DNA of 64,000 nucleotides, taken from positions 2,172,054-2,236,053 of the forward strand of contig CAJINV010000005.1 of assembly GCA_905178155.1 (NCBI GenBank), read 5' to 3'. Source of the DNA: Amoebophrya sp. A120 (taxonomy: Eukaryota > Protista > Dinoflagellata). Each line of letters opens with the position of its first letter. The first letter of the stretch is position 1. Positions 1 through 59,481 of the stretch are shown here, one piece after another. A model generated the notes under the pieces. It did no database searches. It was not told where the DNA came from and saw only the letters and a list, made by a program, of their open reading frames with translations. The translations under genes and the position numbers were made by a program.

Positions 1-2767
1 GCTAAAGCCCGCGAATGGAACCAGTGCGGAAACCTCCTGTTCCGCAAATCCGCCGCAGATGTCCCCTTTGGACGCGGAGCAGATACGGGAGATTTTGCGC
101 GCAGATTTCGAAGAGCTCGCAGGGGCAAACTCCGCAAGCACCTCAACTTCGGCGCATGACAAACTAAATAACGCAGGATCATCAACATCTTCCCAACCTC
201 CAAATAGAATAGACCAGCAGTCCTTTCAGTCCGAGGATTTTTCCCAGCAGACCAGCGAGTTTTTGCAGCAGAACTTCGAGCTCTACGAAGATATGGATTG
301 CAAAAATGTCTGGGTCTGGAAACTTGTAATGCTGCGTTGGGAATAATGAATGCTCTGTAATGCACAGTCAAGCATGAGAAATGTCTGCGCTTCTTTGTGT
401 TGCGTTTTTCGCATGACAAACTGCGTTTTTGCATGACAGGCAACAGGGTCTCTTCTTGGACACGCATCGCAAACTTTTTGGTCATGCCAGACAAGCATGA
501 CAAACTTGCAATCTTCCAGACCCAGACATTTTTGCATTTGATAGAAGACGCCTTCGACCTCTTCGGGGCGGTGACTGTGGAAAAGGCCGTGAAGTTGGGA
601 CAGTGCGACACGCTGGAGGAAATTAGCGATTACGTCGAGAGGCACCAACACGAACCGGATTGGGCGCTTTCGATGGAAGCGATCGACTTCCGGCAGACAC
701 TGGACCTGCTGACCAAGGTGCACGATATCTACGCGGCGAAAACTACGACGGAAAGTGAGAGTTTTGGAGCCGCGATGGAACTTACGCCGAAAGCGGGTGT
801 GGACGAGAGTGTCGACGAAGGTAAAGAAATCTGAAGCTGCGTTTGGTCACACAACTGATTTCAGTTGTTTATTCGTTATTCCTTTTGCATTCGCATCTAG
901 TTCTAGATCTACCATCTACGTTCGCCGTGTTATGAAAGAGTGCCTTCTTCTACGTAAGTGCCATTGACGAGCAAGAAGTCAAAAAAGATTATACAAATCG
1001 TCACATCAAAATTTTCCTACAGACGAGCAGCGCAACCGGCGGTTGGAGCTTTTGCACAAGATTTTTTCGAAGATTGCCTACCACCCGTTCGATGACAAGG
1101 TGCGGAGTGTAAAAGCCAAAGTTATTTACGACAAGATGTCCGCCGACTTACTGCTCCAAGGGAAAGTCGCAGACTTGATGGTGACCTGCGGTTTTCAGAT
1201 AAAAGCAGAGTCCCCACGGGGCAACAACGACGCAAACAACACGACGAGCATCGCCGCGCAGGTGATGCGCGTGAAGCAGGAGAAGTTGAATTTGACGGTG
1301 CAAAATGCGAACAGCCAGGTTGTTTTTCATTTCCCGCACCAACTCGACACGGACCGGAAGGAGGTGGTGCGTTTCCATCGCGTTTTCAGCTTACTCGAGG
1401 ATCTGGTCTCCAGCTTGCAAGTGGAGGAGCTGCAGGCAGTGGAAGTTGACCTTGCGCCCGGTGGCGCGACTTCTGCAACAGAAGTGCTTTGCTCCACCCC
1501 GAACTTGTCTTCCTCCGCACAGAGCAGCAAGAACACGGTAGTGGCTAGTACGCCGTCGATACTAGAGCTGCAGCCCCCTGTAATATTAACGCCTAAGGTC
1601 GTACAACAAGGGACGACTTCTAAAGCTTCCTCCTCGTCGTCCGTCGGCAGTCCCACCCCAAACAGCAACCAGTCCTTCTCGCCGCCCGAGCGCGGAGTTC
1701 ATCCTGGCGGAGAGACCACGAGCCGGAGCAAACCGCCGCAGCAGCAGAACAGGCCCGGTAGCGGGAAAAAGGAGCCCTACATACCCGGGAAGAAACCGCC
1801 GATCTCCAAAGACGAAATGCGCCTGAAGCGGCTGGCAAAGTTGGAGGAAGGGACTTCTGCAGGGAGTAGCCTTGGATCGACTGCTGCCAAGGCGAAGTCT
1901 TCCGCCGCCCGGTCGCTGCAGGGGGCGCTGGACTACGGGACCATGAGGAGAAAAGTGGTGAAGGAGCAGGATCGGAGGGAGAAAGAGCAGGAACAGAGAA
2001 CCGGCGTGGTCAGGCGGAGAAACAAGCCAAAGGCGACGGGGTACTGGGGCAACGTGTGGAGTCTGATGGAACACAACAACACGGCGGAGAATTTCCAAAT
2101 CCGGTCGGTGCCCAACCGGAACAACCCGGTATGGCGGTCCGAAGATGATCCGATCAAAAGAGGCAATGATGGCTTTTCGACAGGTGGTCGTGGCACTCCC
2201 TCGTTGTCTGAGCTGACGGACCGAAAAGCGAAGTTCTTCAACCTGCAAGACGTGGAAAACCTCCGGTGGCGCGACGCGATCCGGGACACCCCGAAATACG
2301 CAGAGTCGTGGTGGAACAGCCAGCCGCAGTCGACAAATTACAGCGAGGTGGCGCGAAGGAGTTACGACCCGGCGTATTTGGGGCGGAAAGCGCTGGACTA
2401 CACGAATCGTTTTCGGGGCGAAAACGGCCTGCCACCTTTGAAATGGAATGAAGCTATGGCGCAGATCGCGAAAAAGCACGCGGAACAGATGGCGAAGGGG
2501 GAAATGCCCTTCAGTCACGACGGGTTCAACGAACGAGTTAGGCAATTCCCCTTCCACAGCTACAGTTCAGCGGAAAATCTGGCGTATAACCAGGGGCACG
2601 CGGACACGGCCGGCGTCGCGGTAAACGGCTGGATACACTCGCCGGGACACTGCAAAAATTTGTTGTCCCTGACAAATTTGTGCGGGATAGGCGTCGCGGG
2701 CCGTGCGGATGGGACTTTCTACTTCACCCAGCTGTTTGCGAAAACGGCCGGGGGGCTGGCGCCATGA
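1..2767 (+). CDS. PUB-like + C-terminal CAP/SCP domain protein (5'-truncated by window)
   Basis: Frame open from position 2; joined across introner 292-543 and GT-AG intron 821-1022 to ORF 1043-2767. PUB-like ELLHKIFSKIAYHPFDDKVRSVK; CAP motifs NRFRGENGLPPLKWN, FSHDG, AENLA, WIHSPGHCKNLL, FYFTQLF. Confidence 0.8.
292..543. mobile_element. Introner family A (TIR element acting as non-canonical intron)
   Basis: TIR core TGCAAAAATGTCTGGGTCTGGAA / TTCCAGACCCAGACATTTTTGCA; TSD GAAGA (287-291, 544-548); removal gives ELYEDAFDLF in frame. Confidence 0.92.
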
Positions 2768-5037
2768 ATCGTTCTCATTCCGTGGTATTCTTGTACGTAG
2801 TAGACCCACTTGATGGCCGCGGCTCTGAAATTGCAAACCGTCCGCAGATGAGTTTTGCTTGATTTGAGAAATGTTACTGACTCGCTTTCAGGAACCATTA
2901 ACTCATGATGCAAATTCCGATTTTTCCTCAAGGGAGCAACCGCGACCGGACAGGAGACGGAGACGCTTAAGGTGCGGAGCATTTTTTCTCTAAGCGATTA
3001 GGATTACACTGCGGCATTGCTGTTCGCTTCTCTTCTGGTAAGTGTTTGCCTCTTCGTTTTGGCCTGCTGCTGCAGGGAAGCCAATATACCGCAGCAACCA
3101 CATCACAGCACGCCAGTGCGATGGTTCCGACTGGTACCAGGCCAGGCGCTCCCTGGGATACCCATGGCGCGGCTAGCTGCGCCCCATTTTGATCGTGCGG
3201 GGCCGCCAGAGTTGCTAGCCACGCACCGCGGAGGCGGTAGGACGCAACGGGCCCGGCGGGGCCCAAGAACGCGCCGAAGGCCGTGCATGTGTCGATCAAC
3301 CTGCCGACTTGCGGAAAGTGATGAGCCCCAAAGGCAGCGAAGCGGCGCCCGAGAGGCACCCGCGCCGGGCCAACAAGAGGGGCGCCCCGTGCCGCTTCCG
3401 GGCCCTGGTCTCCTCTTCGGAGGATGGGCGCGAGGAATGGCGCCGGATTCCTGCCGAGGCGGGAGGGGCGCTCGCCGAGCAGCTCGAGCCCTCGGCGCCA
3501 GCCCGGACGCGGCGCGGCCGGTATCTATTTCCGGCGCGGGCGAGCTGGAGGAATTTCGTCGACGGCAAGTGGTACCTGGGCCACGTGATCGACACGAAGG
3601 CGGCGGCCCGCCAGGTCTACAACCCGGGCAAGGATGTCCCGGCGGCCAGGCGCCTCCTCGCTTGATGCCGGCCCTACTTCTGCGGTGCGCAGTAAGGTAA
3701 AAGCCAAAAGAACTGCGCTGACAAAACACAGCAGAGAGCTGGCCCCGGCCCCGTGCAATATGCAGAACGAAGGCTGCGCAAAGCACGGGCCCGCAAGGGG
3801 CGGGCCCCTTGCTGCGAGACACGAGAGAGGCCGGGGGCTGCTTGGCGGGCCCTAGGTGCAGCGCCGCCCTGCGGCAGCGATTGGGGCGGCGCGCGCCAGC
3901 TGCGCAATTTGGCCGGCGCGGGCAGCGGGCCCGCCCGGAGGAACGAAGGCGCCCCGGCGCCGTAGCGGCGCGCGCCCGCGTCGGCAGTCGGCGGGGACAT
4001 GCCGCCGGGGCCGCTGGGAAACAGAGCGGCGCGAGGGCCCCCGACCTACCCGCCATCTGCTTCGTCGACCAGCGCCGCCACTGTGAATTCGACCAAAAGC
4101 ATTCTCGACTACATGCGGTAGCTGTCGCCACGCACGGCAAAACACTGCGCGCGCCTTGCATGTTGACAACACAGCCACAGCTTCTGGCTCTGCCGGGGCC
4201 CGATCAAATTCGGGCCGGGCCGACCGAGGGAGCGAGGCCAGGCCGTGCGGCTACCTGGAACGCTCGGCGGGAAAGAAGCAGGGCGCGGCGTAAATTGCAA
4301 GCGGCCCCCAGCGGCGGGTCCCGCAGCGACATCTGTAGCGAGACCAGCCTCGGCCCTCCTGCAGGCTTGAAGGACTGCGCGCCCGTTGACCTTCTTGACA
4401 GGCTGGCACTTCCGGCCGGAGGCGCTTGGCGGTGCTTCCGTCTGGGGAGAGGCACGCCGCAGCAGCATCTCGGGCCCCGGCCCTCCCGCGATGCGCCTCC
4501 TGCCGCGGCCGGCCTACCTAGCGCCGCCCGGCGCCGGGCGCCGTTGCACGGGTGGGCGCCGTTGCGCATATCGGCCCGCGGCCGCCGGGGTTGGCCCGTG
4601 CGACCACTGGCATTGGTTTCGGAAATTGGCGCCGGGGCCTCCAGGCCGGGCGCAGATTGGGTAGTGAATCTGAAGGCGCGACGTCGCCGTCTGCTTGCGC
4701 GTGCCTATATTGCTAGCAGGCCGCCGTGGCCGCCGCTCTCGATGCGCAGTGCCTCACTTTTCCATCTTCCGTATACGTAAGCACACATTGATTGAAAATG
4801 TTGAGGATATCAGGATCATCAGAAAACTTCTGTTCGCGCCACGCTCAGTCACTTAGAACGATCCTAAAGCAAGCAACCTGATCCGGAGATCAAATGAGGA
4901 GCTAAAAGCAAAAATGAAAGAAATGCCGTGATCCTGACCGAGTATCTACTTTTTTGCCTCTTTCCGAGTCAAGTTTCGACCTTTCTATTTTCTGAATTTT
5001 TCCCTCAGTTGACTTGAAAAGATCAAGTATACAACCT

Positions 5038-5562: not shown

Positions 5563-8500
5563 ATGACGACCACCCCGCTACTGCCCGAACCCGGGAGCAG
5601 TCCAGCGACGTCCTCCAAAACGCCGCTTGCCAACGGGGACGAGCCACCTAGCAGTAAAAGGGACAGTTCCAAAATCAGCCACGACGCAGATGGAGCATCC
5701 TCTTCTTCCGCCCACGAAAATAATGATCACACCCGTGACTCCAAGGAATCCACGCACAGCAGACGCAAGAATTCGAAGGAAAAGGAAAACTCCAAAGAAC
5801 CACACGGAAATAATGCACCTGCCGGTCCGTCGAAATACCGCAACAAGCGGGACAAAGGACAACATCAGCACCAGAGCAACAAAACCGACAAAACGAACAA
5901 CCACCCCTGGTGGCGGAAGCGGAAACGGAAGGAGTTGACCGAGGGGATCGTGAAACTGAAATACGACACGGAGGACAAGCAGTACGTGTTTATCACGAAT
6001 GAAGAAGTATCCGCCGAGTACGCGGACAGCCCCGACATCTTCGCGCTAAAACGCGACTTCAAGGACGGGGAATGGCCGCTGGTCAACCGCGGGGACAAGG
6101 TGAAATTCTACCTGAAACAGTCCGACGACGGCACGAAGCCGATCGCGAAACGGGTCCGGTACGGCGCGGACGCCGGCGCTCGGGCGGAGCGGAAGGAGCA
6201 GGTTGGAAGCAAGAAGGAGATTTTCCCGAATTACTACACCGTTGAGAAAGTCCGGGCCGGGTTGATGGACGGAAGTTTGCGGGAGGGGATTTTGCGGGTG
6301 AATCCGAAAAAACCGTCAACCGCGTACGTGGATTTGGGATCAGCCAAGGACACGGCGAACAACGAACGGGATTTGCTAATCCAGGGCCACTCAAACCGAA
6401 ATCGCGCGGTCCACGGTGACCGCGTGGTGGTCCGGATTTTGCCGGAAAGGGAGGAGGACGCGCGTAACGCAGAGCTGAAGGCGAAAAAGAAGATCGAGGA
6501 CAGGTCGGAAACTATGATGTTGAAAAACATGGCGAAAAAAGCAATCGACCTGCAGGACGAAGCACTAGGTGGTGACGCCAGTCCGAATAGACCGGCGACC
6601 GATCTGCAGGATGCGTTGGACGCCGCGCTGGCCGATTCCTTTGATAATTTGAATGTTTCTACGGGCGGTGACAAAAAAGCGGAGGAAAAATCCTCTGCTT
6701 CGAAACGAACCAACGGTGTTGATGCAGCGGATCTAGGATCCGACGAGGATGAGATTGAGTCCGACGCAGAAGCCGATGTGTTGGACGAATTAGCGGAGGA
6801 AGAGGAGGAGGATTGGAACGACGAGGAAGAAGACCGAAAAAGCAATTTCAACACGGCACAGGTCGTCTTCATTGCCGACTACTCCGGCCGAAATCGAAGC
6901 TTCGTTTGCACCCTGTGCCCGAACAATAGTGAAGGCACGGCGGGGAAGACGTCGATGGTGAAGGAGAACGAGAAGTTTGTGAAGGCTTGTCCGGTGGATA
7001 AAAAGTTCCCGTGGATTTTGATCTACTTGAGGGACGAAGTGAAGAAGAAGCTGAAAGTCCCGGGAAAACTGGACAAATTCATGTACTGGTCCGTGAAAAT
7101 CGACAAGTGGGACAGCACGAGCATATTGCCGCTCGGGAATTTGGCCGAGAAACCAATCGGCAAAGCGGGGGACGCCGAGGCGGAGGTGATGAAGGCATTG
7201 GAGGAAACGGAATTGGCGGAACACAACAAGGACTTTGACGACGACATTTTGGACGAGGTACTTACTTTTTTGATGCACAAATCTCAACTCTTCGTCATAG
7301 TCTAGAAGAATTGAGTTTATTCCTGTAGGTCTTGCTGTAGCTTACACCGCAAGAATTTTTGTGGGCAGTTGTAGAACCTCAAACTGCTGAAGTCGTGTAG
7401 GAGTAGCAGTTCCCTTTTGATTATATTTCGCACTAAAAATCCGTAGTTCGAATTCCTGCCACGACCTACTGTTTGCTTATAAAAATCCTCTTATCCCAGG
7501 TCGAAGAGATCGTCCAACGCACCACGGAAACCTTCGAAGAAATCGCGGAGAAGCGGATAGACCTCCGGAAAGAACTGAAAAACGGGGTCCGGATCATGAC
7601 GATCGACCCGAAAACCGCCCGTGATCTCGACGACGCCATCCACGTGAAGAAGATTAACAACGAAATAACCGAATTCGGGGTGCACATCGCCGACGTCGCG
7701 CACTTCGTGAAGCCGGGGTCACACGTGGACAAAATGGCGAAATTCAGATGCACCTCCGTCTACATGCCGGACCGCGTTCTGCCGATGTTGCCCCATGCCC
7801 TCTGCAACCACCTGTGCTCGCTCAATCCGAACGAGAACAAGTGCGCCTTCTCCGTGTTCTTCCGCATCGACAACAACGGCGAGTTGATGGTGGACGAGAA
7901 AAACGAGTATCAATTGCAAAAATGTCTGGGTCTGGAAGATTGCAACTTGTCATGCTGTCTCTGGATTCCAAAAAAATCTGTATTGCGTGACCAACAACAG
8001 GAGTCCAGTTTGTGTTACGAAGGGAGGGCATTTCTCATGCGGAATAGGCATCAGGAAGCCTTCTATCTAAAAATCTGTGATGCTAGATCATGCATCACGT
8101 GCACTATGGCTCATAAAAAATATACATCACAAATCCCGGAATCTTCCAGACCCAGACATTTTTACAGTTGATAACGAGCCCTGGATCGCGAAAACGGTGA
8201 TCAACACCTGTTGTCGCTTCAACTACGACCAGGTCCTATCAAATGTAAAAATGTCTGGGTCTGGAAACCTGTAATGCTAAAAATGAATGATATACGCACT
8301 GCAGTACACAGCTATGCATGACAAATTTTTTGGCTGCCATGTCTTACGTATTCCGCATGGCAAACTGCGTTTTTGCATGACAGATGAGAGGGCTTTTTCG
8401 TGCCTATGCAACACAGATTCTCGAGTCATGCCAGACAAGCATGACAAACTTGCATTCTTCCAGACCCAGACATTTTTGCATTTGATAGGTCCAGGAAATC

Positions 8501-11026
8501 TACGACTTCGGCGGCGCGCAGGCGTTGACCGGCGACGCGCGGCCGGAGGTCTACCACGGCGCGAGCTGGGAGGAGTGCGTGAAGGATCTGTTTCTGATCT
8601 ACAAGGTCTGCACCAAGATCCGCAACGCGAGGTTCGGAAACGGGGCGCTGTCGATGCACAAATCGAAGCTGATTTTCAAAACGACCGACGCCTCCGCCGG
8701 CATGCCGACGGGGTACGCGAAGGAGGTGCATTCCCCCTCGCACTGGGTCATCGAGGAGTTGATGCTGCTCGCGAACAAATCGGTCGCCCGCGTGCAGCAG
8801 AAGCACGACGTGTTTGACAGCTTAGCCGTTCTGCGGAACCACCCGCCGCCGGACGAGAAAAAGGCGAAACGGGTTTTGGAAACCATGCAGCTCTGCGGAA
8901 TTGAGTACAGCAACTCCACGGCGGGAGACCTACACAAGTGCCTCACCAAGATCCACAAGATCTACGGAGAGGAAGTCGCGGCAACAGCCAGCATGCTCAC
9001 CATGAAGTGCGGGATGCGGCCAGCGTCTTATTTCATCGGGGAGGACGAGCCCCCGCACCACTTCGCCCTGAACTTTGACCAGTATACGCACTTTACAAGT
9101 CCGATCCGAAGGTACGCAGACGTGATGGTGCACCGGGTTCTGAACGCCATCTTGGAGAAGAAAACGAAGGAGCAATTCATGATCGAAGATTTGGACGACG
9201 CGGACCGCGAGGCGGTGCCCGAGAAGGATGACAATCTGCTCGGGAAATTAGGCGGGGGAAGGGGCGGAAATAAGCACGCGGAATTGAACACCGACGGACT
9301 GAGCGACGATGACTTGAACGACCAAGCTGGCAGCTTGCGGGGAACGCACAGGTAGGGTGATTTTTGTAAGTAGAAGTACAAACAAAGTGAAATTTTTTTG
9401 AAGCAGTTTTGTGTGTAGGAGGATGCGGGGGATGCGAAGGTTCGGGTAGGTGGAAAAATACTTTCACACTCAAAATGCGTACTACACAAGTCAATTTTCT
9501 AGTTGTCTTAATGCCGAAGCCTAATGGTTGTACATGACAAGCATAAAACTCCAGGCGTGGTGGCGGTCCCAAGCAGAACTACCAGAAAAACCTGAAGAAC
9601 ATGATGGACGACTACAATTCCTCTGGCTTCGTTCAACAAGACACTCTTCGCCCGAAAAAGGAAGACTACCCAGAGGCAAAAACCGCCACCGCGGCAGCTG
9701 CTTCTGGTGATGCTAAACCCACAGACGGTAGCACAACTGGGCCGGAGTTGAATGAGGACGGCACATTGAAGGTGGATGATGACGACAACAACGAGGAATC
9801 CGACAAGAAGTGCCAGGCGAACATCGCGATGGGCAACCAGTGCAAGTCGTGCAACAAAAAGAAAAAGGCGTCGAAGGACTGCCAGGAGGAACTGGACCGC
9901 GCGTGGTTCTGCATGCTGCTCCGGGACCAGAAGAACTGGTGGTACCGGGTATCCTAAGTGAAAACGTCCCCACACCAGAGTCAAATTGGGAAATCTGCTA
10001 GACAAATCCACCAGCTTTGGTTGTTTCGCATGACAGGCTTGCCCTCGTAGTGTAATCCTGTTTAGCTTATTCAGCAGCATCACAGATCTGGCATATCTTG
10101 CTGATTCTAGCATCACAAAGCCCAAAACACGACTAGAAAATGCGTCTCATGGGTCTCGGCATGAGAAACATTCTCAGCATGCAGATTTGCATTACAGCTC
10201 TGGGGTGGGGACGTTTTTACAAATGATACCGGGCCGCGACGGTAACCGAGATCCAGCCGGACGGCATCACTGTGTTCGCGCACGAGATTGGGAAGGAGAA
10301 GAAAATTTTTGTGACTGACATCCGGACGCACCACGACATCCCGAACCTGTTCGTAAAGGAGGTGAACGACGAGGTGATGCTTCCGGAGGAATTTGAGTAC
10401 TGGAGCAAGTCCCACATGAAGGTCACCTGGAGCAACAAAAAAGTGGAAGACACGCAGTTCCTTTACGGAGACGAAAGACCAGACTTGGAGGAAACCGAGG
10501 GGCAAGTGCTTGGAAGTACTATACGTTTTTACTTTAGCTGTCTTGTTTCGTGATTGATAGAAGCCGCGTCGCTATAAAAAGTTTACTATCTTGAGGTCCT
10601 ACATGATTTCGTACACATGCAGAAAAATTCTCAATCGCCATTGCTATCCGAATAACTACCACAGGCGACGTCGCTCCCCCGCCGGGAATGGACGTGATAG
10701 ACATTGAACAGATGACGGTGGAGCAGGACATCCATCTCCTCTCCGTGGTCCCCATTGTACTGATCCCGACCAACACCGTCCCAATAGACTTTGTGATGCT
10801 GCTCGTTTCCCCCTACCATGCGCAGTGGCGAAAAGTGGAAATTACGGACAAGGAGAGGCGGGGGTTCAACAACGCACCGGTGGAGTCGTTCGATGAAGAC
10901 GGCGACTCGGATGACGACGACAACGAGGACTACGGAACGCAAAGACGACCGCCGAAGAACGCGAAGGGAAAAGGAAAAAAAGGCGGAAAGAAGGGCGGTG
11001 GCAAAGCGAGAGGGCGGGCGAGCTGA
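5563..11026 (+). CDS. DIS3L2: DIS3L2-like RNase II/RNB family 3'-5' exoribonuclease
   Basis: RNRAVHGDRVVV (CSD), TIDPKTARDLDDAIH, GVHIADVAHFV, TSVYMPDRVLPMLP, HWVIEELMLLAN, HFALNFDQYTHFTSPIRRYADVMVHR; no PIN domain seen. GT-AG introns 7258-7499, 9352-9554, 10516-10664 plus three introners. Confidence 0.88.
7908..8173. mobile_element. Introner family A
   Basis: Family A TIRs; TSD ACGAG; removal gives DEKNEPWIAKTVIN. Confidence 0.92.
8237..8487. mobile_element. Introner family A (also readable as GT-AG intron 8233-8488)
   Basis: Family A TIRs; TSD GGTCC; removal gives NYDQVQEIYDF. Confidence 0.92.
9950..10228. mobile_element. Introner family B
   Basis: TIR core AAAACGTCCCCAC / GTGGGGACGTTTT; TSD CCGGG; removal gives WWYRAATVTEIQPDG. 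Confidence 0.9.
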
Positions 11027-45336: not shown

Positions 45337-48300
45337 ATGCGTCGTACTACTTCTATTCGCGTGCTGCGCAACTACAGTTCGCAGCTCCTCTCAAGGCGAG
45401 TGCTACTTCCTCTCCTGGTTTTCTTCTTCCACCACGCGGCAACTCATGTGACCGAGATTTGCGCGCGACAAAAGCTCCTCCGGCGGGAACAGAAGCTGCT
45501 CGAGCTAGACCAGGACGAAAAAAAGGACGAGGACGACGATGAGAAAAGTGACAAAGAAAAAGAGAAAACAGAAAATCCAGATAAAAAAGACCTGGAAGAG
45601 GAGCAAGATCAAGCGAATGAGAAAGCCTCGAAGCGGAACCCCCTGGAAGAGAAGTCGGAAGAAGGCGATGCGAGTGACGTGCCGGAGGTGCTGGACTACA
45701 GCGCCATGGTGGAGCACCTAACTGGATTGGTAGAAGAGGCACTGCCATCAGCACAAGCGGATAAGGAAGAGGGGGAGGAGAAAACGGAAGGGAAAAAAGA
45801 GAAGAAAGGTAAGCCAGATAAAGACGATGGTGCAGAGGGGGACGCTGATGAAAAGGATAACGCGGACGACAAGAAAGAAGGAAAGAAATCAAAAAAAGAA
45901 AAGCCTTCGGACGAAGCAGCAGACAACCCGCAGTTCGACGGCGAGGACGCAGACGCGGAGAAAAAGGAAGAGAAGCGTGATGACGACGATAAAAAGGAGG
46001 ACAAGGAACCGAAAGATGAAAAATCCTCCGGCGCCGGTGAGGACGACGGCGATGACAAGAAGGACCAGAAAAAGAATAGTGACGCGCCCGGCGGTGAGAC
46101 GGACGACGCTGGAGAAAAGGAACAAGGGGATAAAGGCGATGATGGAAAAAAACCGGGCGGTGGAGAAGCGAGTAAAGATGACGCCGACGGTAAAGGCGGC
46201 GCAGAGGGAGATGGAGACGAAGCTGACGAGGAGGACCACGACGACGAAAAAGACGCCTTCGCAGCCATACAGCTGCACGGGGACGGAAAGATGAAATTTG
46301 ACGGCGAAGACGAAAAGGAAAAAAAGAGAAAAACCGACGACGACGATGATGATAGCAGTAAAAAAGACGACGACAAAGACGAGAACGGAGCACTGAGTGA
46401 TGAAAAGGGTGAGAGTGATAAGGAAAAAGACACACCAGCATCAGGAGGAGGTAAAAAGGATAAGAAAGATTCCGACAAGAAGAATTCCAAGCGCGAACAA
46501 CCAAAGCCGATCGAGAAAAAAGATCCGTTAACGGCGTTCAAGGAAAGTCTAGAAAAGCCGCCCGTCCTAGGCGAGTCCTATCCTGTGCAAAAGTATCGTA
46601 CTCGTACTAATTGCAATCATGCATGACAAATCTAATTGCAATCATGCATGACAAATCTCTCGTACTAATGCATTTTGTTGCCCCATTCTCCACTCTATGT
46701 CTATGTCTGTGTACCCGCGAGTGGTTTTATCTTTCTCTGAATTTGCGGAAGATGAAGATATGTAGCAAATTTGTAGACCAAGCAGAAGAGAAAGATAAAA
46801 AAGAAGTAAGAATGAATAGTCTCAGCCATACTTCAGCGCTTTTCAGTGCCACTTGTAGACCCGGAATATGCTCAAGTGCCAACAGGGCGAGAGCCCTGCA
46901 AGATCGGGCGACGTGAGTAAGTGCAGACGGGAAAAACGCCAAAGATACCCGCGCCTTCTGCTTAACTGTGTGAAATATTGTGTCGGCCCGGTTCTGCTCA
47001 GACAGGCTGGATCCCGTAGATCAGATTTCACATGTTAAGTAACGCACACCGGCCTCCTAGCAAAAAATTAATGATGAATTTATATGAGAAAGAGGGGCCT
47101 AATCAAAAAAAAAAATCATGCATGACAAATCTTGTTTCTTAGCGAAATCAGCATTACAAGTTCCATTTTTTCTTCTGGAAAAATTTGCATTGCGATTTAT
47201 ACTAATACGATACTTTTGCAATGCATAAATCCCGCGTGTACACGATAGACCCCGGGAAGTTCAACGGGTATAATTGCGTCGAGAAGCGCAAGGGGATGGA
47301 TCCGGTCACGTTCTTGACCACTGAAAAGATAATCGCGTACAAAGAGACGCCGTGTGTGGAGGTATAGTAACAGCTAAATGTTTGCTGCTTCTGTCGTGAT
47401 GAACTGTAGCACTAGCAAATACGCTATTGTATTCGATTTGTTTTTTGCATTTGCCCCAGAACTTGAAATTCAGATAGTGACTTTTCTTTTTGTGGCAAAA
47501 AAATCCAATCACAATAAACCCAGGAATACACTTCCTTCAAGCCGGAAAAGGGTTGGCTTTGGCCGGCGGTCTCCACCTATCTCGCCACCCAGCACTTTCT
47601 ACCCGGCACCTTTGACAGCAAGGAGCAGCAGGCGGACATTTTGAAAATTCTGAAGTCCTTACCCGTCGAAAAACTGGACGGGATCCGCGCGCCGAAGGTG
47701 TACGGCAACGTGCTGTTCGACGGAAAAACGCCACTGGAGTACTTCGACGTTACCCTGGGCGTATGGATTGCGAATATGTCTGGGTCTGGAAGATTGCCAG
47801 ATTTGTCATGCAGGTTTTCCATGACCCATGAGGTCTGGTATGTAGGACATAGCATGACAGATTCTGTGAGAGTTCTATCCTGCCTATCCTGCATGAGAAA
47901 CTGCCTCCCGATTAGGTAAAAAGTGGGCGACAGCTTCTGGTAATCAGAATCACGCAACACAGATTTTTACATGGTCCAGATTTAGCATGACAAGTTGCTT
48001 TGTTCCAGACCCAGACATTTTTACATTTGATAGGGCGTGGCCATGCGGAAAACGAGCTGGGATGAATTATTGGAACCCACGGAGTATCAACTGCAAAAAT
48101 GTCTGGGTCTGGAAGATTGCAACTTGTCATGCTGTTTTTGGACTCTAAAAAAATTTGTATTGCATGACCAGCAAGAGGGGTGCGCTTTGTGCTACTTACA
48201 CGGACAGGGCATTTCTCATGCGGAAGGTGCATCAGGGAGCCCTCTAAAAGTCTGCGATGCTAGGTCATGCATTACAGGCGTCACGGGTCATGAGAAATAT

Positions 48301-49724
48301 GCATGACAAATCTTCTTGCATTCTTCCAGACCCAGACATTTTTGCACTTGATACGGAGGGGGAAGACCCACAGTTGGGCGGCCAGCTAAAGGCGGAGGTG
48401 GAGCGGCAGGACAAAAAGTACTATTTGACTTGTTCATTTTTGTGTACATGATGTAGTAGTTTTTTCGCTTCCTCCTATAGTAATGCTAATGCCTTAGTCC
48501 AGCAAACGAAAATCTAAATCAACAACATGAAACACCACCAGCTACGCCCTCCTGAACGACGTGCCGGAAGAAAGTGCAGACCAGGAAGAGCCGACGCCTG
48601 ACAAGGGGCTGTCCGCGAAAGCAGAGGCGAAGGAGGAGAAGAAGGAGGAGGGCGAGAAAAAGCCATCCGAGGAAGAGGACGAGACACTATACGTATAAGA
48701 AAAGTTTGTTGCTTGTCATGCTGAACAGGTGGTTGTACTGTATCGAATGAAGTTGCAGGCAGCTGCGCATGCACTTTGATTGTGAGAAACGAGCTCGAAA
48801 AATTTCGTTGCGAACACGAGTGACTTATTCATGCCCTGTTCGGTAAAACAAAAACCGAAAAACTACAGTACGGCATCGGTTTCGGCTGTGTCCTCATCAT
48901 TATTGGCATCGGCGGCGCGCTAGCGCAACAGAAGACGGAAGAGAAGGTTCCGCAGCCTGACATTGAACAGCCAGAGGACAAGAATGAAGAGGAAATTAAC
49001 GATATCACAGGAAAAAGTGTTAACGTTGACGGAATTTGTGACGCAGCAATGCATCACAAAACGTGTAAGAATTTGTCATGCATAGCATGCATATTGGGCT
49101 ACGTTTGTGATGCATGACTGCGATCTGTGAAAACCGCTAACGTTAACACTTTTTCTTGTGATAAACGAAGAGGATCTGAAGGCTGACCACCAGGCGCTAG
49201 ACAAGGAATTACCGCCGCAGACCCGGGACGAATTGATGAAGCGGGTGAACGACGAAATGAACGATAATTTGCACAAAGCTGCTGCGGTAGACGACGCAGA
49301 TGCTAACGCTGCTGCGGCTGCTGTTCCCCCGCCAGCCCAGCCACCTTCCTCCATCACAGAAGAGCTACCCAAATTGACTCCCTTGCCGAAGCTGAAAGCG
49401 CCTGCGAGGCGACAAAGCACCAGTCAGAATAAAGACGTAAGGGGGGCTGCTGCACCTACTACTGCGTCAGGAGCAGCCTCGCTACAACAAACCGCGAGCA
49501 AGTCGAAGCCGGCTGCGGTACCGACAGCACAAACGAAAGCAGGCAGCGGCAGCGCCGGGCCAGCTTCGCCCAGTTCCCCAGCTTTGGCGTCAAAAGGCGC
49601 GTCGCCCGGACTGGCTTCGAAGGCTGGGTCCAAGGCGGGTTCGATGGCGGCGCCAGCGAGTTCACCGGGACAGTCTTCCCCGGCGGGGAAAGCGACTTCG
49701 CCGGGGAGCTCGAGAAGAGCATGA
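45337..49724 (+). CDS. Hypothetical D/E/K-rich type-I membrane-like protein
   Basis: N-terminal hydrophobic segment, long acidic tract, TM YGIGFGCVLIIIGIGGALA; continuous frame after removing four introners and three GT-AG introns. Confidence 0.62.
46579..47227. mobile_element. Introner family D (long, 649 bp)
   Basis: TIR TATCCTGTGCAAAAGTATCGTA / TACGATACTTTTGCAATGCATA; TSD AGTCC/AATCC; removal gives PVLGESRVYTIDPGK. Confidence 0.82.
47762..48032. mobile_element. Introner family A
   Basis: Family A TIRs; TSD GGGCG; removal gives DVTLGVAMRKTSW. Confidence 0.92.
48085..48353. mobile_element. Introner family A
   Basis: Family A TIRs; TSD CGGAG; removal gives LEPTEGEDPQL. Confidence 0.92.
49003..49163. 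mobile_element. Introner family E (short, 161 bp)
   Basis: TIR TATCACAGGAAAAAGTGTTAACGTT / AACGTTAACACTTTTTCTTGTGATA; TSD AACGA; removal gives EEINEEDLKAD. Confidence 0.9.
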
Positions 49725-50364
49725 GGGCGTCTCGTTTAGAAGTTCTTTCAGTTGTGAGTTGATATGCTCTTGTAGTACCCTGAACTGCGAAATGTATCAA
49801 AGCCGGCTAAGTATTGTACAAGGAAAATGTTAAGCGCAAGCCAAATTTTACTGAACTTTTGCAAATCAAATTTTAATAATTGATGACTCATTTTTATGTT
49901 GACAATTGTGACTTGACACCTGTATGATCTTCGCTCTCCAGAGTGGAAAAGAAAATTTATTCCGAGAAGAACTCTTGATGAACTTTTGCACCACTAGGTG
50001 GTCTAGGACCTCTAATTGATGAAAAAACCTTGTACCAAAGAGAAAATCACGTGCGGCTCGAAGTTTGCATTTTCAGCAAGGTCATGAAAAATTCCTCCTG
50101 GACCGGCCTGAAGCGAAAAGTTTTAAGTAATACTGTGACGCGATCGCGAGGTTTTGTTTGCTTCTACATACAGAAACAATAAAACCATACTACGGCAAGT
50201 GCAAGATTGGTAAATGAAGCATACAGATAAAGAAGCCTGGTGACCAACACACAGAAGTAGATCAGTGTCTACAAATAGTCGGAGTCCCTACAAGAGTTTC
50301 ATTTTGAAGGTCGAAGCAAATCTAAAGCAAACAAGCCTTCTCGAAAAAGAATCTAAAAATCATA

Positions 50365-52191
50365 ATGTCGCCCCCAACCGCGTCCTCCTCTTCCTCCTCG
50401 CGGATTCAGTTTCACCACTTTCCCGAAATCGACAGCACGCACACCTTCGTCGAGCGGACCTATGGCTCGTTCGACCCGAGCATCCTTACCTGCGTGTCTG
50501 CGGACTACCATATTGTGAGGAAAAATCCCCCCTCCCCATGTCAAAACGGCATTTCTGATGCTGGATTTGTGTACACAAATCAGCTTTGTATTGCAGAGAG
50601 ACATTGCGGCCAGATCCCCAGGCTAGGTAGGGGCGAATGGGTCTAGTTGTTCAGCATGGCAAACGGCTGCCCATTAGGCCCAACAGCATGACAAACCGCT
50701 TCCATAATGGGGCGGAAGCTTCTGCCCTTCTCTCCTTGCAAGACAGACGGGATTTGTGGCCTCAAATCAGCAAGACAAATTTTCGAAAGCATACCTTTTC
50801 AATATGGGGAGGGGGAGTTTTTCCTTACGATATACCAGACCGCGGGGAGAGGGACGAACAAACGCGTGTGGTCCGCGCCGAAGGGAAAAAATCTGCTCAC
50901 GACGTTTTACTTCACCCTGCCGGACCGGTGTAAGGCGCAGGCGGCGTCGTTTTTGCAGGTACAGGTTTCTTTGTTGTTCAGCATCGATCTCTTGGTCGAA
51001 GCCGGTTCCTTGATCGTGCATTTCATGTTTACGAAGTAGGCCACTCTACTGCACAAAACTTCAACTTGACCATACGTGAAGATGTTTTTGACGAGGCTTG
51101 TTGTACTTCGTTCACAAAATAACTGCACGGAAAAAAACTAGGTCGCCGCCGTCTCTTTTCTCGACACGGTTCGGAGAAAAGCCTGTCGCGGCGTGGACAT
51201 CAGCCGCTTGCAGTTTCGACTGAAGTGGCCGAATGACGTCATGTGCAACGAGAAGAAAATGGGCGGGATTCTATCCCGCATGGTCGCGGATCCAGTCCGA
51301 CACAGCTCGAGTTCACGGGACGTCAGCAGATTGATCCAGGGGACGAAGCCATCAGCGGGAGGTGGTATGCCAGTGGTTTTATCTTCCAGTAGTAGCACCA
51401 GCGCCGTGAACAACGCGACATCCAATACCTCCGCCGTTGAACTCTCCCCCATAATCGGCACAAACGTAAACACGTCTTTCGTGCAGTCCCCGAACAAAGC
51501 CGAACACTCCGTCGTCCTCGCAGATTTGACCCCTCCGAGTCTGACGCACGCCGCGGCGGCGACGGCAGGGAGCAGTGTGGGCGGCGCAGTTGATGGTGTC
51601 CACCAGCTGAGCTCCCCGACGTTTGCGGAGAAATTAAGTAAGGAGATCCCCGGGACGCAGTCCTATTCCCTTCCGATCGAGAATTACACAAGGGATTTCT
51701 ACTACAGCGGAAGCAGCAGCAGTGAGAGTGGTACTATCGAAAGCAAGAAAGAGAAGCGGATCGGGATGATACTGTCCCTCGGGTTGAACGTGAATTTGAC
51801 GCAAGACGACTTAGATTTGGTCATCGCCAGCAACAACGGGATCAAAAATTTCGCCTGGCCGCCGACCAGCTTGCGGCAAGAGATCGGGAACCCCGTGCTG
51901 CAGTTTGAAGTCGACCGAGTCAAGGAGTTAATCGCTTTCGACCTGTACGATATCATCCTCAAATTCGAGCAAGTCGGGTACCTGCAGTTTCTGCGCGCGA
52001 TCAACGACAATTTGCTGTACGAAAACGAGAAAATCGTGTTTGCCCCGCGGGGCCGGGAGCACACCGACCGGGTGGAGGGGATCTTCCGCGGGCTGGACGA
52101 CGAGGGGTGGCTAATTTTGGAGTCCCTAGTCACCGGCGGGACGGAAAAATACTGCAGTGGCGAGCTGTGTCCACCGGTGAAAGTCAGGTGA
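50365..52191 (+). CDS. Biotin protein ligase (BirA/holocarboxylase synthetase family)
   Basis: EIDSTH, ADYQTAGRGTNKRVWSAPKG, LKWPNDVMCNEKKMGGIL, LGLNVN, GIFRGLDDEGWLIL; one introner and GT-AG intron ~50959-51141. Confidence 0.9.
50511..50832. mobile_element. Introner family C
   Basis: TIR GGAAAAATCCCCCTCCCCAT / ATGGGGAGGGGGAGTTTTTCC; TSD TACCA; removal gives SADYQTAGRG. Confidence 0.9.
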
Positions 52192-52937
52192 GGGCCGAAG
52201 GTTTTGCTGTGTCACTGAAGAGCACGGGGGTGAATTACTCATGTACCGGCCGTGACACGTAGTACGAGACGACCACGACACTGGAATTGTAATCTAAGAA
52301 GCGACAAGAAAGACAACAAACTACGAGCAAAATGAAGACTATGAAAAGAACCAACACCGGCGTCCATCTACAATGCGATGGCACTTTCCTTCCACCTTTG
52401 GGTAATCGTTACTGTTCGTGTCTATGCCTTGCTTCCGATCGTTGCAAATGAAAGTGTGTGATCTTCAAACGCGCAACCAATTTTTGCTCGAGTTACTGAT
52501 TTTGTATGGAGAAGGAAGTAATTTTTGCAAAACGGGATCCATGTTTTCCTTTCCCTCCACTCTTTCTTTTAAACTCGCTTTAACAGTAATGCAAAACTGC
52601 GAGCAGTTGAATGCGAACTCAATCACGCGACCCCTTGTCATTTCATCTACCAGGACCACATTTTAATTTTATTCTCCACAACAACATTATTCGAGCCCCA
52701 CCAACCTAACGAGATCACACCCCGAGACCTCGACCAACAACAGAAAGAACCCCGCAACAAAGTAGAACCCTAAATAACAAACTTTCTGCGAATACCAGTA
52801 CTATGAAGCATATGGCGATGATCCGCAAAGGGCCTAGTTTTTTGTGAGTAAGGTCGTATTACAACAGTTTTTTTCATGAAGTTGTAACAAGTTGAAACTT
52901 CATATAGACACCGCACGACCGCGACTCCCAACACACC

Positions 52938-54398: not shown

Positions 54399-55308
54399 GT
54401 TTTTGTGAATGTCCGGCTGGCGGAGCCAGAGGCAGACACAACACAGGCTCTACGCGGCAGCACTTTCTTTGGAGAAGATGAATCTCTTTGCGATAAAGAA
54501 TTTTGGGTCTGTGAGCAGTAAGTATCCAACAATTGAAACGACGGCAGCACTGAGGTCATTCATTATCTATGAGATGAGACTGAAAAACGACTGAAAAGCG
54601 AGAGAGTAAAGTCATTTGCTACTCATTCAATGTTGTTTGTTGTGTTTAAGAGAAGCAAAAGCACGATTTTGATTTCCAAGTGGCAGGGGGCTGTGACTTC
54701 TTTGTGGTACACCGGAACACATTTTGTTCGCTGAGAGGCTGCTTCCAAAGTGGTCGCTTTATCGGTCGAAGGTGTTGTGAAGTTCATAGGTTTTTCGATC
54801 TAAAGTTTTGATTGTAGGTCAGTACCTGCAAACGTCGATTGGAAAATACGGGGCAAAACGCAGAAAAACGCATGACAGGCCCTCTCCCGGAAAAGTAAGC
54901 GCTTCTTCTGAAACTGATCTTTTCCCCCGAGAAAGATCTTTCTCGACCATTTCTTTAGTGCTGTGTTACTTGTAACGCTATTCGCCGCGGCCGGTTACGG
55001 TTTGGTGCCATTTTTGTTACCTTTTCATCAGGCACTGTCATTCGGGTGAGGACAAATAGGGCCGGCAGAGGAGCAATTTTTGAGGGAAAATTGACTGTAC
55101 CCCGAATAGAACAACCTGTATTCTATCACCTTCGTCAAGATTGTCACTTCTGTAGCTGCCTCGCAGCAGGAAGTGAGCCCGGCTTTTCCTCCCCCAACTA
55201 GTTTTTCACACCAGTAAAAATTTGATGATGTTGTACACAAGAACGTTGCCCCTAATCGAAGAAGCTTAAGCTTTCCCCCCCCCCAAAGCCAAACAATTCA
55301 AGCACAAA

Positions 55309-57806
55309 ATGTCGTACTCGCTCTCCTTCAAGACCAAGGAGGGCGAGAGCTTCACGCTCGATGTGGAGAGCTCCGCCGAAAAGATAGAGGATTTGAAGGT
55401 GCGGCTGATCTCGATGGACGAAAGCTTCGAAGAGTGCACGCTGCTGTTTAAAGGCAAGATCTGCAAGGACGACAAAACGCTGGAAGACTGCGGCATGGTA
55501 TCGGGCGCTGCGGGCAACGTGGTCGTCATGCGGAAAAAGGGGAAAGTGCCAGCCAGCAAAGCCGCGGAGCAAGCTGCAACAGCGGCGAGTGCTGCCGTAG
55601 TGCCGCCAGGAACAGCACCCGCAGGTGGAGCTTCCGCAGCGCCACCCGCAGGGGGACCCTCCGCACCACCACAGGCTCCTGCGGCGGAGAAGGTCACAAT
55701 AGACCCGGCGGTGGTAGAGACGATAATGGCGATGGGGATCTGCGCCGATCGGGCGTACGTCGAGCAGATGCTGCAGAAGACTAAGGGAAATGCGGATCTC
55801 GCGATGGCGTGGATTCTGGAGCCGGAGCAAATGCTGCAAGAGGAACAGCAGCACAGACAAGCGCGCCGGCAGGCACGCGCGCAGCAGCAACAACAGAGCG
55901 TGAGCGTGCAGCCCATGCGGGTCGGGGTGGAGAAGTGGAGCGACATGATTCAGGACGGGGTTCTGGTACATGACACTTAGGGAGTTTTTTAAGCTGAAAA
56001 GTCGAATGTTTGTGATGCATTGGATTCTGACGTAGGTGCAGAAGCGAAGCAGGCATGAAAAGCAAGTGGAAGATTTATGCAACAGAGGACGACGTCGATT
56101 TACAACAACAGATAAACGGCGCCACCTCCGTCCAAGACGCAGCAGCGTATTTGGATAACAACAGCAAAGAATGCATTCTCCTGCTCCTGGGCGGCGCGAC
56201 GGAAAGGAATAGTCGCGGCATGGTGCAGCACCTGCAGATGATCTACGCCATGGCCGAGCCACAGCTGTGCATCCTGTACGTGCCCTTCATGGATCAGGAT
56301 GAAGCGAAGTTTGGCGATTTCATCCGAGTATAGAAGTTGCCTCTAAATGGTGTCGTGATTTTGCCAGTTCCAGGCACAGTTAAGTGTGAAAAAGCACAGC
56401 TTTTGAAAAATATAGACTTTCGTTCTCGTTGCATGATGATGGCGTGCGTGGTACTAGATAGCACCAGCGTCGAACCTCGCGCCAAAGGCCGCGTGCACAC
56501 AAAATACACAAACAAAACAGACCATGCCGTGGGGCTCTCTCAAATTCAACTCGCCGTCGATGAAGCTTTTAGACGCGCGCTTCTCCCTTCGCTACAGCCA
56601 CGGTTCCGTTTTGATCCAGAAATCCACCGGGCACGTCCTGTCCTACGGTGCGGTCAATGACATGCTGCTGCACAACTTTGACTACAACACGGCAAAACAG
56701 CACTGGCTCGCCAGGGGGCACATCGTCAGGCCAGCGCCGTTCACGAAAGAGAATCCAACGGGGAAGGGCACTGGCGCGGTCTCGTCAACGGGCGCGGGGG
56801 CAGGCGGAGGTACTTACTTGCGGACTGTCTTTTGATACGTGTGATGAGGATGTCGTGAGAACAAGCTGGGATTTTCTTGCATAATCGGACTCTCGTCATT
56901 GAAAACTCTAGTATTGAGGGTCGTATGAATCTCCGCTAACTTCTACAGGCCAACCCGCGGTCGCGCCCCCGGTTGTTCCGCAGCCCGTCGCGGCACCACA
57001 GGCTGCCGTGGCCGCCGCGGCGAAACCTACCCCCGCGACGTCATCTTCCGGTCCCGCTGCAACCGCGGTTTTACCGGGTGGGAATCCCGCACTGGAGTTG
57101 GTAAAAGTCCAGGACGCGGTCAACGAATTCTGCGAAGTCGGAGACTATACGCAGCAAGAAGAATTCTTCGCAACACTCTTGAAAGTGCTAAACAACATCG
57201 CCGCTACGCCAACCGAGCAGAAGTTCCAGGCGATAAAAAACACGAACGCGAAGCTGTTCGGACCGTTTGTGGCGAGAGTAGAGGATCCGAATGCGATGGT
57301 GGATGTAAATCCAGCGCCGGTTGGAGGTAAGGTTTTGGATTTTACAAGGGTGTTTCTCAGATTGTGGTTTCTTTGCATGACAGATAGTTGTAGAGCAAAA
57401 GTTCCTACAGCTCGCCGCAATAATTTAAAGATTCCGCGACGGACCAAAAAATATGCATATGGTCGCCGGACCAGGTCCAGGATCTCCGATTCTCAATTTC
57501 CGCTTTTGACAACTAACAGACCGCCCCGGAATCGCGGTGCTATCCATCGCGCACTTCGCGCCCGATGGCGACTTCGTGCGCTGGAACGCCAGTGCGCCGA
57601 ATGCGCTCCCGGATTTGATCGCGTTGCGAAACCATTTGGTCACCATCGCGAAGAAATCTAGTGAGCGGAAATTTAGATTCGAGCGGGACCAAAAGATCGC
57701 GGTCGAGATGGAAAAGGACAAAGGGAGACAAACGAAATATGGCGGAGCGGAAGGCAGCGGAAAGATGACCCTTGGGCAGGACAGGAGGAAGCGCGGTGGC
57801 GGCTGA
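55309..57806 (+). CDS. Ubiquitin-like + UBA + thioredoxin-like + PUB domain protein
   Basis: UBL (LLFKGKICKDDKTLEDCGM), UBA (VETIMAMGI...GNADLAMAWIL), nucleoredoxin-like (DQDEAKF...MPWGSLKF), PUB (TLLKVLNNIAATPTEQKFQAIKNTN); 4 introns, first boundary uncertain. Confidence 0.68.
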
Positions 57807-58838: not shown

Positions 58839-59481
58839 ATGGTGAAATCCACCCCGACCCGGCTCTACCAGAAGGGCGTCATCACGTCCTACAAGCGGGC
58901 CCGCAAGGACCTCACCCCTCGTCAGTGCCTGGTCAAGATCGAAGGTAAAAGAAAGAAGACTTATGTCAAAGTGCAATTTTCGCATGACAGCATCTACTTC
59001 GCTTATTTCATGAAATCTAAATTCCGCATGACGAAAGTTTTTGATACCAATGTGAATTTTCCCCAACACAAACAAAACACTCAGGTGTCAACACCCAAGA
59101 GCAGACCAACTTTTACAAGGGAAAAAAGGTGGCTTTCGTCTACAAGTGCAAGAAGGAGAAGAAGAACTCCAAGTTCCGGTATTGATAGATTTAGATTTTG
59201 ATTTTTTCGCATTACAGGTGTCTTTTCTCAAGTTCAGCATGCATGGAAATAAGTCGGTTTCTCACTGTCAAATTGTCATGCGAAGGAACGAGAGAAGTTT
59301 GATTTGGTATTTATTCAAAAACCACACGATCATCTCGAAAAAACAAAACAGCGTCATCTGGGGCAAGGTTCGCCGCGCTCACGGACACAACGGTATGGTG
59401 CGTGCTGCTTTCTCCACCAACTTGCCGTGCACCGCTTTCGGCGCCCCGTGCCGCATCATGATGTACCCCTCCAACATCTAA
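58839..59481 (+). CDS. RPL35A: 60S ribosomal protein L35a (eL33)
   Basis: RLYQKGVITSYKR, LVKIEGV, FYKGKKVAFVYK, VIWGKVRRAHGHNGMVRAAF, RIMMYPSNI; two GT-AG introns. Confidence 0.95.

Follow-up and report, generated by a model that had tools for sequence, protein, structure and literature searches.

The motif GCAT(G/C)ACA recurs in both the introner elements and the ordinary GT-AG introns of a 64,000-nt stretch of Amoebophrya sp. A120 DNA (the window, from which all statistics on the motif come). New here is that all 23 introners carry the motif as a head-to-tail pair 30–33 bp apart, at sites conserved almost like the TIRs. Our leading reading, held tentatively and at slightly less than an even chance, is that the fuller motif GCATSACAR(R) is the predicted site of one sequence-specific double-stranded-DNA protein, selected in both intron classes, and that introners present it in phased arrays.

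The 23 introners have a TIR and a 5-bp TSD, and removal of all of them restores ORFs. All start with TAT and 21 end with ATA, the TIR having the form TAT-N7-AAA with a visible A-run; the TSD is perfect in 20 and matches at four of five positions in the other three. They leave RNA with non-canonical ends, 15585–15840 and 19478–19795 being skipped together with one TSD among the joints listed, and they are repeated genome-wide, with a summed contig depth of 4 × 10³–4 × 10⁵ on introner bins versus ~45 elsewhere (run X1). The elements match the published introners of the Amoebophrya A120 type. Copies differ from one another mainly by C>T and G>A changes. No transposase gene lies within the window, and Rfam gave no match at the gathering threshold and nothing credible in 21821–22201. 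The elements are given below without strand; family letters were assigned anew and may differ from the families A–E of an earlier note on this DNA.

292–543: introner A, TIR TAT..ATA, TSD GAAGA, exact sites at 411, 431 and 495
7908–8173: introner A, RNB-domain gene
8237–8487: introner A
9950–10228: introner B, six same-strand sites forming three 30–33 bp pairs
15585–15840: introner A, 261 nt skipped in RNA, one TSD length included
19478–19795: introner E, 323 nt skipped in RNA
20794–21056: introner A
21108–21318: introner C, type 1
22337–22579: introner A
22952–23209: introner A
23256–23535: introner B in reverse orientation, all sites on the − strand
24654–24937: introner B
29556–29817: introner A
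30116–30377: introner A
33800–34055: introner A, PP2C gene
34131–34386: introner A
43690–43977: introner B, adaptor-complex medium-subunit gene
46579–47227: introner F, 649 nt
47762–48032: introner A
48085–48353: introner A
49003–49163: introner C, type 2, without alignment to type 1
50511–50832: introner E
63182–63443: introner A

The exact motif was counted on both strands, by sequence class, against dinucleotide-preserving shuffles. Introners hold 68 copies in 6,419 nt (shuffle mean 1.5; none of 1,000 shuffles had as many). Nine copies lie in the 8,411 nt of GT-AG introns, one each in 9 of 42 introns, where 0.82 are expected and 0 of 1,000 shuffles reach nine. The motif is near background in coding exons (four copies in 30,180 nt, 1.44 expected, count reached by 17 of 300 shuffles) and in UTR and intergenic DNA (three in 18,990 nt, 1.0 expected, reached by 79 of 1,000). 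The nine intron positions named in the earlier note all carry the exact motif and lie in GT-AG introns that give ORFs; the intron at 56011, whose boundary had been called uncertain, is set to 55966–56111 by the ORF. The same note had described the motif as rare in long exons with one exception near 154, and had placed the pattern at 372–59281. Exons are indeed near background, but they hold four copies rather than one; the motif is present across that range, but the pattern extends to 63396. Among the joints listed, RNA-like contigs skip at least four of the nine motif introns, and a fifth is supported by a 5c row. The introns, all on the + strand, are listed with the strand of the motif in brackets, followed by a probable further intron and the exact copies found elsewhere.

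11913–12062, +: GT-AG intron of a TLC-domain gene, exact motif at 11954 (+); ORF, RNA-like contig joint
16689–16847, +: GT-AG intron, exact motif at 16779 (−); ORF, RNA-like contig joint
23556–23689, +: GT-AG intron of a WD40 gene, exact motif at 23587 (−); ORF, 5c row
23826–23966, +: GT-AG intron, exact motif at 23891 (−) and a variant 41 nt further; ORF
48693–48868, +: GT-AG intron, exact motif at 48714 (−); ORF
55966–56111, +: GT-AG intron, exact motif at 56011 (−); boundary by ORF
57327–57519, +: GT-AG intron, exact motif at 57375 (+); ORF
58945–59084, +: RPL35A intron 1, exact motif at 58982 (+); ORF, RNA-like contig joint
59179–59351, +: RPL35A intron 2, exact motif at 59274 (−); ORF, RNA-like contig joint
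61744–61874, +: probable further GT-AG intron that links two ORFs in frame; its strong variant site at 61817 entered the statistics as intergenic
154: exact motif in coding exon
10792: exact motif in coding exon
20258: exact motif in coding exon
62732: exact motif in coding exon
37195: exact motif outside genes or in UTR
54870–54877, +: exact motif upstream of a gene, strong site
59530–59537, +: exact motif in the probable 3′ UTR of RPL35A, strong site

Either strand can carry the motif, and its GCA is nearly invariant. The base after the core is a purine in 68 of 68 introner copies and 9 of 9 canonical-intron copies, compared with 4 of 7 elsewhere. The excess of one-mismatch variants in canonical introns is limited, as in introners, to those with GCA intact (28 versus 8.65 expected; GCA-broken, 9 versus 6.1), so that both classes have a common degeneracy, with GCA fixed and a purine after the core.

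A scoring matrix trained on introners was then applied to 41 canonical introns at thresholds of 8 and 12 bits. It returned 38 matches versus 6.7 expected at 8 bits and 20 strong matches versus 1.3 at 12 bits. UTR and intergenic DNA gave 13 versus 13.3, and exons a mild excess (26 versus 17.7 at 8 bits); RNA-supported UTRs hold no strong site in 4,949 nt. Strong sites outside annotated introns were found at 59530, 54870 and 38117. The earlier note had suggested such a class-wise comparison, with equality to background as the outcome that would speak against its observation. Run on the window, the comparison places canonical introns ~11-fold above shuffles (exact motif) and 7–15-fold above AT-matched UTR/intergenic DNA (P = 4 × 10⁻⁶ at 12 bits). 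Chance or base composition as the source of the canonical-intron copies is largely refuted by this P value and by the shuffles, and we give it next to no credence, even though there are only nine exact copies from one window and exons and intergenic DNA likewise exceed their low expected counts ~3-fold. The motif having been derived from introners, its test in canonical introns involved no search over words.

Matches in canonical introns are strand-symmetric (18 sense, 20 antisense), evenly spread (8, 8, 9, 9 and 4 per fifth along the intron, without a 3′ peak) and Poisson-distributed (variance/mean 0.99), and exact copies lie 61–147 nt from the 3′ end. A spliceosomal branch point, expected on the sense strand about 15–45 nt ahead of the 3′ splice site, was rejected on the strand counts, the even spread and these distances, and a sense-only RNA motif on the strand counts. 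Since 17 of the 41 introns lack any match even at 8 bits, not every intron needs the site. Sites in ordinary introns are single, strong and unphased: no helical periodicity was detected in them (Rayleigh p>0.5), same-orientation clustering within introns (12 versus 5 pairs, P=0.068) was dropped as an idea, and 30–33 bp pairs are absent by a weak test (P 0.03–0.7). Strand symmetry together with a position-specific degeneracy profile, both seen in the motif, is expected for the site of a host DNA-binding protein. The motif may also resemble bZIP composite or POU sites, a likeness on which no conclusion here draws.

The introners are organized differently from the single, unphased sites of ordinary introns. 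The same-strand pair 30–33 bp apart occurs in 23 of 23 elements, from five families without mutual alignment, and a matrix built from family A only recovers it in five of five non-A types (P about 6 × 10⁻⁵). Spacer identity between families is 0.33 versus 0.29 when shuffled. Within families, motif columns have identities of 0.83–0.89 versus 0.64–0.71 for other internal columns, in a test with some ascertainment bias. In most introners an outward site pair ends 32–45 nt from an element end; beyond the 30–33 peak, no general 10.5-bp periodicity was seen. The earlier note's description of several copies on both strands of each element does not hold generally: in family B every site is on the same strand, and elements of family E have a single exact copy each, along with variants.

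This geometry bears on two further explanations. Under the first, which we consider improbable, the motif acts in RNA: it would either set the register of the introner hairpin or serve, with TNAY read on both strands, as a branch-like or protein-bound word that is independent of orientation. The left (−) and right (+) pairs of family A do mirror each other and extend the TIR stem, an outward site lies 33–45 nt ahead of the 3′ end in 13 of the 14 elements of this family, and shuffling the flanks of strong canonical-intron sites lowers their pairing slightly (from 0.67 to 0.59, n=20). However, the one-strand sites of family B have no pairing partner, 39 canonical introns show no more folding than shuffled sequences (mean z −0.02), sites in canonical introns spread evenly without the 3′ peak, and an RNA-binding protein would have to read two different strand sequences. 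Under the second, the word, rich in CA/TG, has no binding function and owes its presence in introns to a bias in mutation, repair or base modification that generates or preserves it. Introners are depleted in CpG and enriched in CA (O/E 0.55 and 1.51), and the prevalence of C>T and G>A between copies fits such a bias. We nevertheless regard it as very improbable: dinucleotide-preserving shuffles fail to reproduce the word, transcribed UTRs lack it, and a bias would not fix a 30–33 bp spacing across unrelated families.

A protein site could also be a relic. The motif may be the subterminal transposase site of all TAT..ATA introners, with most ordinary introns being remnants of introners from extinct families, their ends remodelled into GT-AG signals and the motif in them without a role; we hold this, the main rival, to be possible, but rather unlikely. 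The motif stands at a fixed orientation and distance inside the introner TIR, as do transposase subterminal repeats, and a MITE is known with paired subterminal motifs to which a transposase binds cooperatively (PMC1636448). Decay of fungal introner-like elements into regular introns is proposed in the available text of PMC3609843. Canonical introns are shorter than introners (median 167.5 versus 262), and their CpG O/E (0.94) is between those of introners (0.55) and intergenic DNA (1.10). In the adaptor medium-subunit gene, none of five GT-AG intron positions is common with 80 auto-called introns from other eukaryote loci (one gene, no close relatives, its introns without the exact motif), which would fit lineage-specific gain and hence descent from elements.

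Sequence traces of such descent were sought in the canonical introns. Against the families present in the window, their best local scores average 30 versus 29 for shuffles (maximum 39), while same-family introners score 239–426 and copies decayed to d=0.25 are expected at 100 or more. Similarity among canonical introns is at background (30.2 versus 29.9), and their bins are at single-copy read depth. The residual TIR score is 13.3 versus 13.0 shuffled (introners, 51.9), and the TSD is perfect in 8 of 42 introns, compared with 13% of mismatched pairs, and in 1 of the 9 motif introns; neither of these remnants, for which the earlier note had advised a search, is in excess. Simulated neutral decay with d≤0.3 predicts a TIR score above the 13.3 observed (P≤0.003), and with d≥0.3 it falls short of twenty strong sites (P≤0.003), so that no single simulated level fits both the erased TIRs and the 20 strong sites. 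The exact and GCA-intact densities observed (1.23 and 3.84 per kb) are close to those simulated for decay to d=0.25 (1.39 and 3.78 per kb), but GCA-broken variants are fewer than such decay predicts (P about 0.03) and the share of strong sites is above prediction (P 0.01–0.03 for d 0.2–0.3). The Poisson spread would moreover require nearly all introns to be element-derived at a similar age, and, according to the available text of PMC7789003, about a fifth of A120 introns are canonical and share positions with a strain having other TIRs.

Plain decay, the earlier note's proposal that many canonical introns are old introners, is disfavoured. The TIR-based comparison loses its force if intron ends were reshaped into splice signals, and decay from extinct donor families with such ends may still have taken place. 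The other proposal of that note, a strand-symmetric protein-binding site, is the one favoured by the strand counts, the invariant GCA, the 30–33 bp pairs and the within-family conservation. Descent from introners and later retention of the motif can combine.

Searches beyond the window covered several collections. A metagenome scan with the adaptor medium-subunit exon gave 79 loci, none of which could be recognised as coming from the genome of a close relative, and the 80 auto-called introns in metagenome loci (8,585 nt; redundant, partly spurious calls) held no exact motif. In the viral scan, a TIR 19-mer matched two loci, both without the motif, the pair-plus-TIR pattern and the protein query matched nothing, and ten matches to a three-copy pattern were unrelated tandem repeats. 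Four matches in prokaryote genomes resemble tandem repeats or chance hits. Coverage of the region was low in raw-read runs X10 and X11 and in the low-share run X9, and none of them yielded orthologous introns.

The 30–33 bp spacing corresponds to three helical turns. If the motif is indeed a site selected in both intron classes, two protein units would lie on one helix face just inside the element end. On the single sites of ordinary introns, the putative protein, a host factor or a domesticated transposase, would serve as a host intron mark linking chromatin or transcription to splicing. Introners would gain from dense phased arrays in their removal from RNA and possibly in transposition-complex assembly, and ordinary introns may descend from older element waves, the motif having been retained, not merely left over. 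A stronger version, which we think unlikely, is that this lineage, in which U1 snRNA was reportedly undetected, marks introns at the DNA level: a GCATSACAR-bound protein would signal intron location to the transcription-splicing machinery irrespective of strand, and phased arrays would let introners spread and be removed without normal splice sites in either orientation. Common to unrelated element families, in a fixed geometry, and to ordinary introns, the motif is a concrete bait for pull-down of the missing protein and a genome-wide marker for asking whether ordinary introns are old introners. A DNA-level intron mark, if true, would be a new splicing principle; a fossil transposase site, if true, would date and quantify element-derived canonical introns.

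The motif was not found in the literature searched. The introners resemble the A120 elements of Farhat et al. 2021 (PMC7789003), as far as the available text describes them, in their TAT-start inverted repeats with seven looser bases and an A-run, short direct repeats, non-canonical splice ends, length of ~240–260 nt and co-oriented genes; the direct repeat here differs in being a uniform 5-bp TSD, perfect in 20 of 23. That text reports that neither a transposase nor U1 snRNA was found in A120 and describes no internal motif common to families or canonical introns, and two motif strings had no match in the supplement text. In fungal introner-like elements, as presented in the available text of PMC3609843, regular introns are likewise shorter and less structured than the repeats, and descent is proposed; those elements, however, have canonical splice signals from the start, unlike the introners here, and no internal motif outliving the rest of the element is described in that text. 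Close inside its TIR, the Emigrant/Lemi1 MITE (PMC1636448) similarly has two short motif repeats with a set orientation and spacing, but these copy half of the TIR, whereas the word here is distinct from the TIR, common to non-aligning families and also present in single-copy GT-AG introns. The apicomplexan TGCATGCA promoter motif (TRP-2 / ApiAP2-linked; available text of PMC13734140), from a related lineage, has a (T)GCATG core and acts on double-stranded DNA, a resemblance only: it is a palindromic promoter element, whereas the motif described here is non-palindromic, intron-restricted and tolerant of GCATCACA, GCATTACA and GCAACACA.

The window was annotated by hand into 16 ORFs, every one on the + strand, with 42 ordinary (canonical) GT-AG introns totalling 8,411 nt and 23 inserted elements, or introners, totalling 6,419 nt. 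Once both were taken out, the frame of every gene was open, and both were skipped in RNA-like contigs among the best-supported joints listed. Pfam domain names were obtained for 10 of 13 tested exons, including CAP, RNB, TLC, WD40, PP2C, adaptor medium subunit, BPL, PUB, L35Ae and galactosyltransferase. In the 41 GT-AG introns shorter than 400 nt, the donor is GTA in 40 (GTAT 17, GTAC 10, GTAA 9, GTAG 4) and the acceptors are A/C-rich, not pyrimidine-rich. A single RNA-like contig covers two neighbouring genes (45138-52347; sequencing-read runs X4 and X6), reflecting either overlapping UTRs or read-through. Direct reading of the sequence also revealed intergenic, non-coding blocks that are rich in GC and do not resemble introners, at ~3000-4760, 26550-27050 and 37300-39300.

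The elements start with TAT in 23 of 23 cases, end with ATA in 21 and are flanked by a perfect 5-nt target duplication in 20. All 23 sit in coding sequence (P = 3.5 × 10^-7 under random placement), with none in the 19 kb of UTR and intergenic DNA or within GT-AG introns of the window, which indicates either strong targeting or selection. Grouping by TIR gave families A (14 elements), B (4), C (2), E (2) and F (1). Best local alignment scores were 36-53 between families and 239-426 inside A, B and E; the two family C elements do not align with each other. In run X1, summed depth was 4 × 10^3 to 4 × 10^5 for element bins versus ~45-70 for canonical-intron bins. CpG O/E is 0.55 in introners against 1.1 in exons and intergenic DNA, and changes among introner copies are mostly C>T/G>A, a combination possibly due to methylation-linked decay.

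The motif GCAT(G/C)ACA occurs 84 times in the window. Elements contain 68 of these exact copies (shuffle mean 1.5), canonical introns 9, never more than one per intron (0.82), exons 4 (1.44) and UTR/intergenic DNA 3 (1.0). The nine canonical-intron sites listed in the earlier note are all correct by this count, whereas the single exon exception it had reported is one of four. A 12-position matrix, trained on element sites alone, was scored at 8 (weaker) and 12 (strong) bits. In 41 canonical introns it found 38 hits versus 6.7 at 8 bits and 20 versus 1.3 at 12 bits, with hits in 24 of the 41; a family A-only matrix gave 34 and 19. Elsewhere, hits numbered 13 versus 13.3 in UTR plus intergenic DNA and 26 versus 17.7 in exons. 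That the canonical-intron copies arose by chance is scarcely credible at these counts, and an origin in mutational bias is highly improbable. The hit rate in canonical introns is 7-15 times that of AT-matched non-intron windows. RNA-supported UTRs (4,949 nt, RPL35A 3' region omitted) hold three weak sites and no strong one; a strong site at 59530 lies in the RPL35A 3' region, outside that set. Another strong site, at 61817, was counted as intergenic and lies inside a probable intron found post hoc from the ORFs:

61744-61874, probable GT-AG intron, in frame

With this probable intron removed, two ORFs would become continuous and encode a single protein of 960 aa with a galactosyltransferase domain. 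The scan left out the 1,122-nt intron 30600-31721 (0 hits), which carries an array of five ~40-nt palindromic repeats at 30987-31396, likewise with zero motif hits. The long, GC-rich intron 21821-22201 is also without the motif; an Rfam search of it gave no match. Within it, the 56-nt stretch 22104-22159 is flanked on either side by ~500 partial reads from run X10, has variant contigs in runs X3 and X5, and is possibly a repeat or RNA fragment.

Elements and canonical introns share the degeneracy of the motif. A purine directly follows the core in 68/68 element copies, 9/9 canonical copies and 4/7 elsewhere. The excess of one-mismatch variants is confined to those with GCA intact (51 versus 13 in elements, 28 versus 8.65 in canonical introns), GCA-broken variants numbering 5 versus 7 and 9 versus 6.1. 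Inside families, identity is 0.83-0.89 in motif columns, 0.64-0.71 at other internal positions and 0.78-0.89 at the termini, G, C and A being the most conserved motif positions, figures that carry some ascertainment bias. Every element (23/23) has a same-strand pair of sites spaced 30-33 bp, and the family A matrix recovers the pair in all five non-A types (P ~ 6 × 10^-5 under random placement); the 22-25 nt between paired sites are not alike across families (identity 0.33 versus 0.29 shuffled). Most elements have an outward-pointing pair whose end lies 32-45 nt from one element end; pairs are mirrored at both ends in family A and polar in family B. In canonical introns no such pair was found (0/12 at 8 bits, a weak test), and hits are distributed evenly along the intron and over strands (18 sense, 20 antisense). 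The enrichment is restricted to introns, the sites are strand-symmetric and degenerate in the same way in both intron classes, the spacing of pairs is fixed, and motif columns are conserved inside families. Taken together, strand symmetry and a three-turn spacing suggest a protein that would bind duplex DNA, with two of its units on one helix face at paired sites; action of the motif in RNA is very unlikely.

The earlier note had also proposed that many canonical introns are decayed introners, which would make their motifs neutral relics of a transposase site. The strongest point in favour of this proposal is that neutral decay simulated at a divergence (d) of 0.25 reproduces the exact and GCA-intact densities. 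However, canonical introns do not align with elements (30 versus 29) or resemble each other (30.2 versus 29.9), show no TIR (13.3 versus 13.0) or TSD excess, and, in the 39 of 42 that were folded, fold as shuffles do. At d = 0.25, decay predicts visible TIRs, double the GCA-broken variants (P ~ 0.03) and a smaller share of strong sites (0.35 versus 0.53 seen, P = 0.01); over the tested d values of 0.2-0.4, erased TIRs and 20 strong sites were never reproduced together. Extinct donor families, with ends rebuilt under splicing selection, would offer an escape. Hits per canonical intron are Poisson, so that nearly all canonical introns would need to be relics, which clashes with the available text of PMC7789003, according to which a large share of the canonical introns of A120 occupies the same positions in a strain with other TIRs on its elements. 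In the adaptor medium-subunit gene (42039-44432), none of five GT-AG positions is common to the other eukaryote loci found; several positions common among those loci are all absent from the window gene. This points to intron turnover in the lineage, compatible with descent from elements. Another word that is strand-symmetric, CTACA/TGTAG (ACTACA), shows ~3-fold enrichment in canonical introns, 2-fold enrichment in intergenic DNA and no overall excess in introners; the excess common to the first two suggests that canonical introns are old. Overall, we regard neutral relics as somewhat unlikely. Strong single sites kept in otherwise unalignable introns argue for selection there, and hence for a host role on introns. 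We therefore favour, tentatively and from sequence, a putative duplex-DNA protein site kept by selection; that it might serve as a DNA-level intron mark is a less secure step, which we consider unlikely.

Among the listed results of literature searches there was no earlier description of the motif, its pairs or its canonical-intron presence, and none of the three was found in the available text and supplement text of PMC7789003, whose supplementary figures may bear on the point, or in the available text of PMC12130899, PMC12005148, PMC11282704 and PMC13734140. The cis-element common to introners and ordinary introns is real and, as far as the literature was searched, unreported, and it offers a testable geometry. 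Transposase-bound subterminal repeats (PMC1636448) and introner decay into regular introns (PMC3609843) are ideas already known from the portions of those papers available. The TAT-N7-AAA ends of the window elements resemble those of the Amoebophrya A120 introners, as described in the accessible part of PMC7789003, and this likeness places them in a known introner class.
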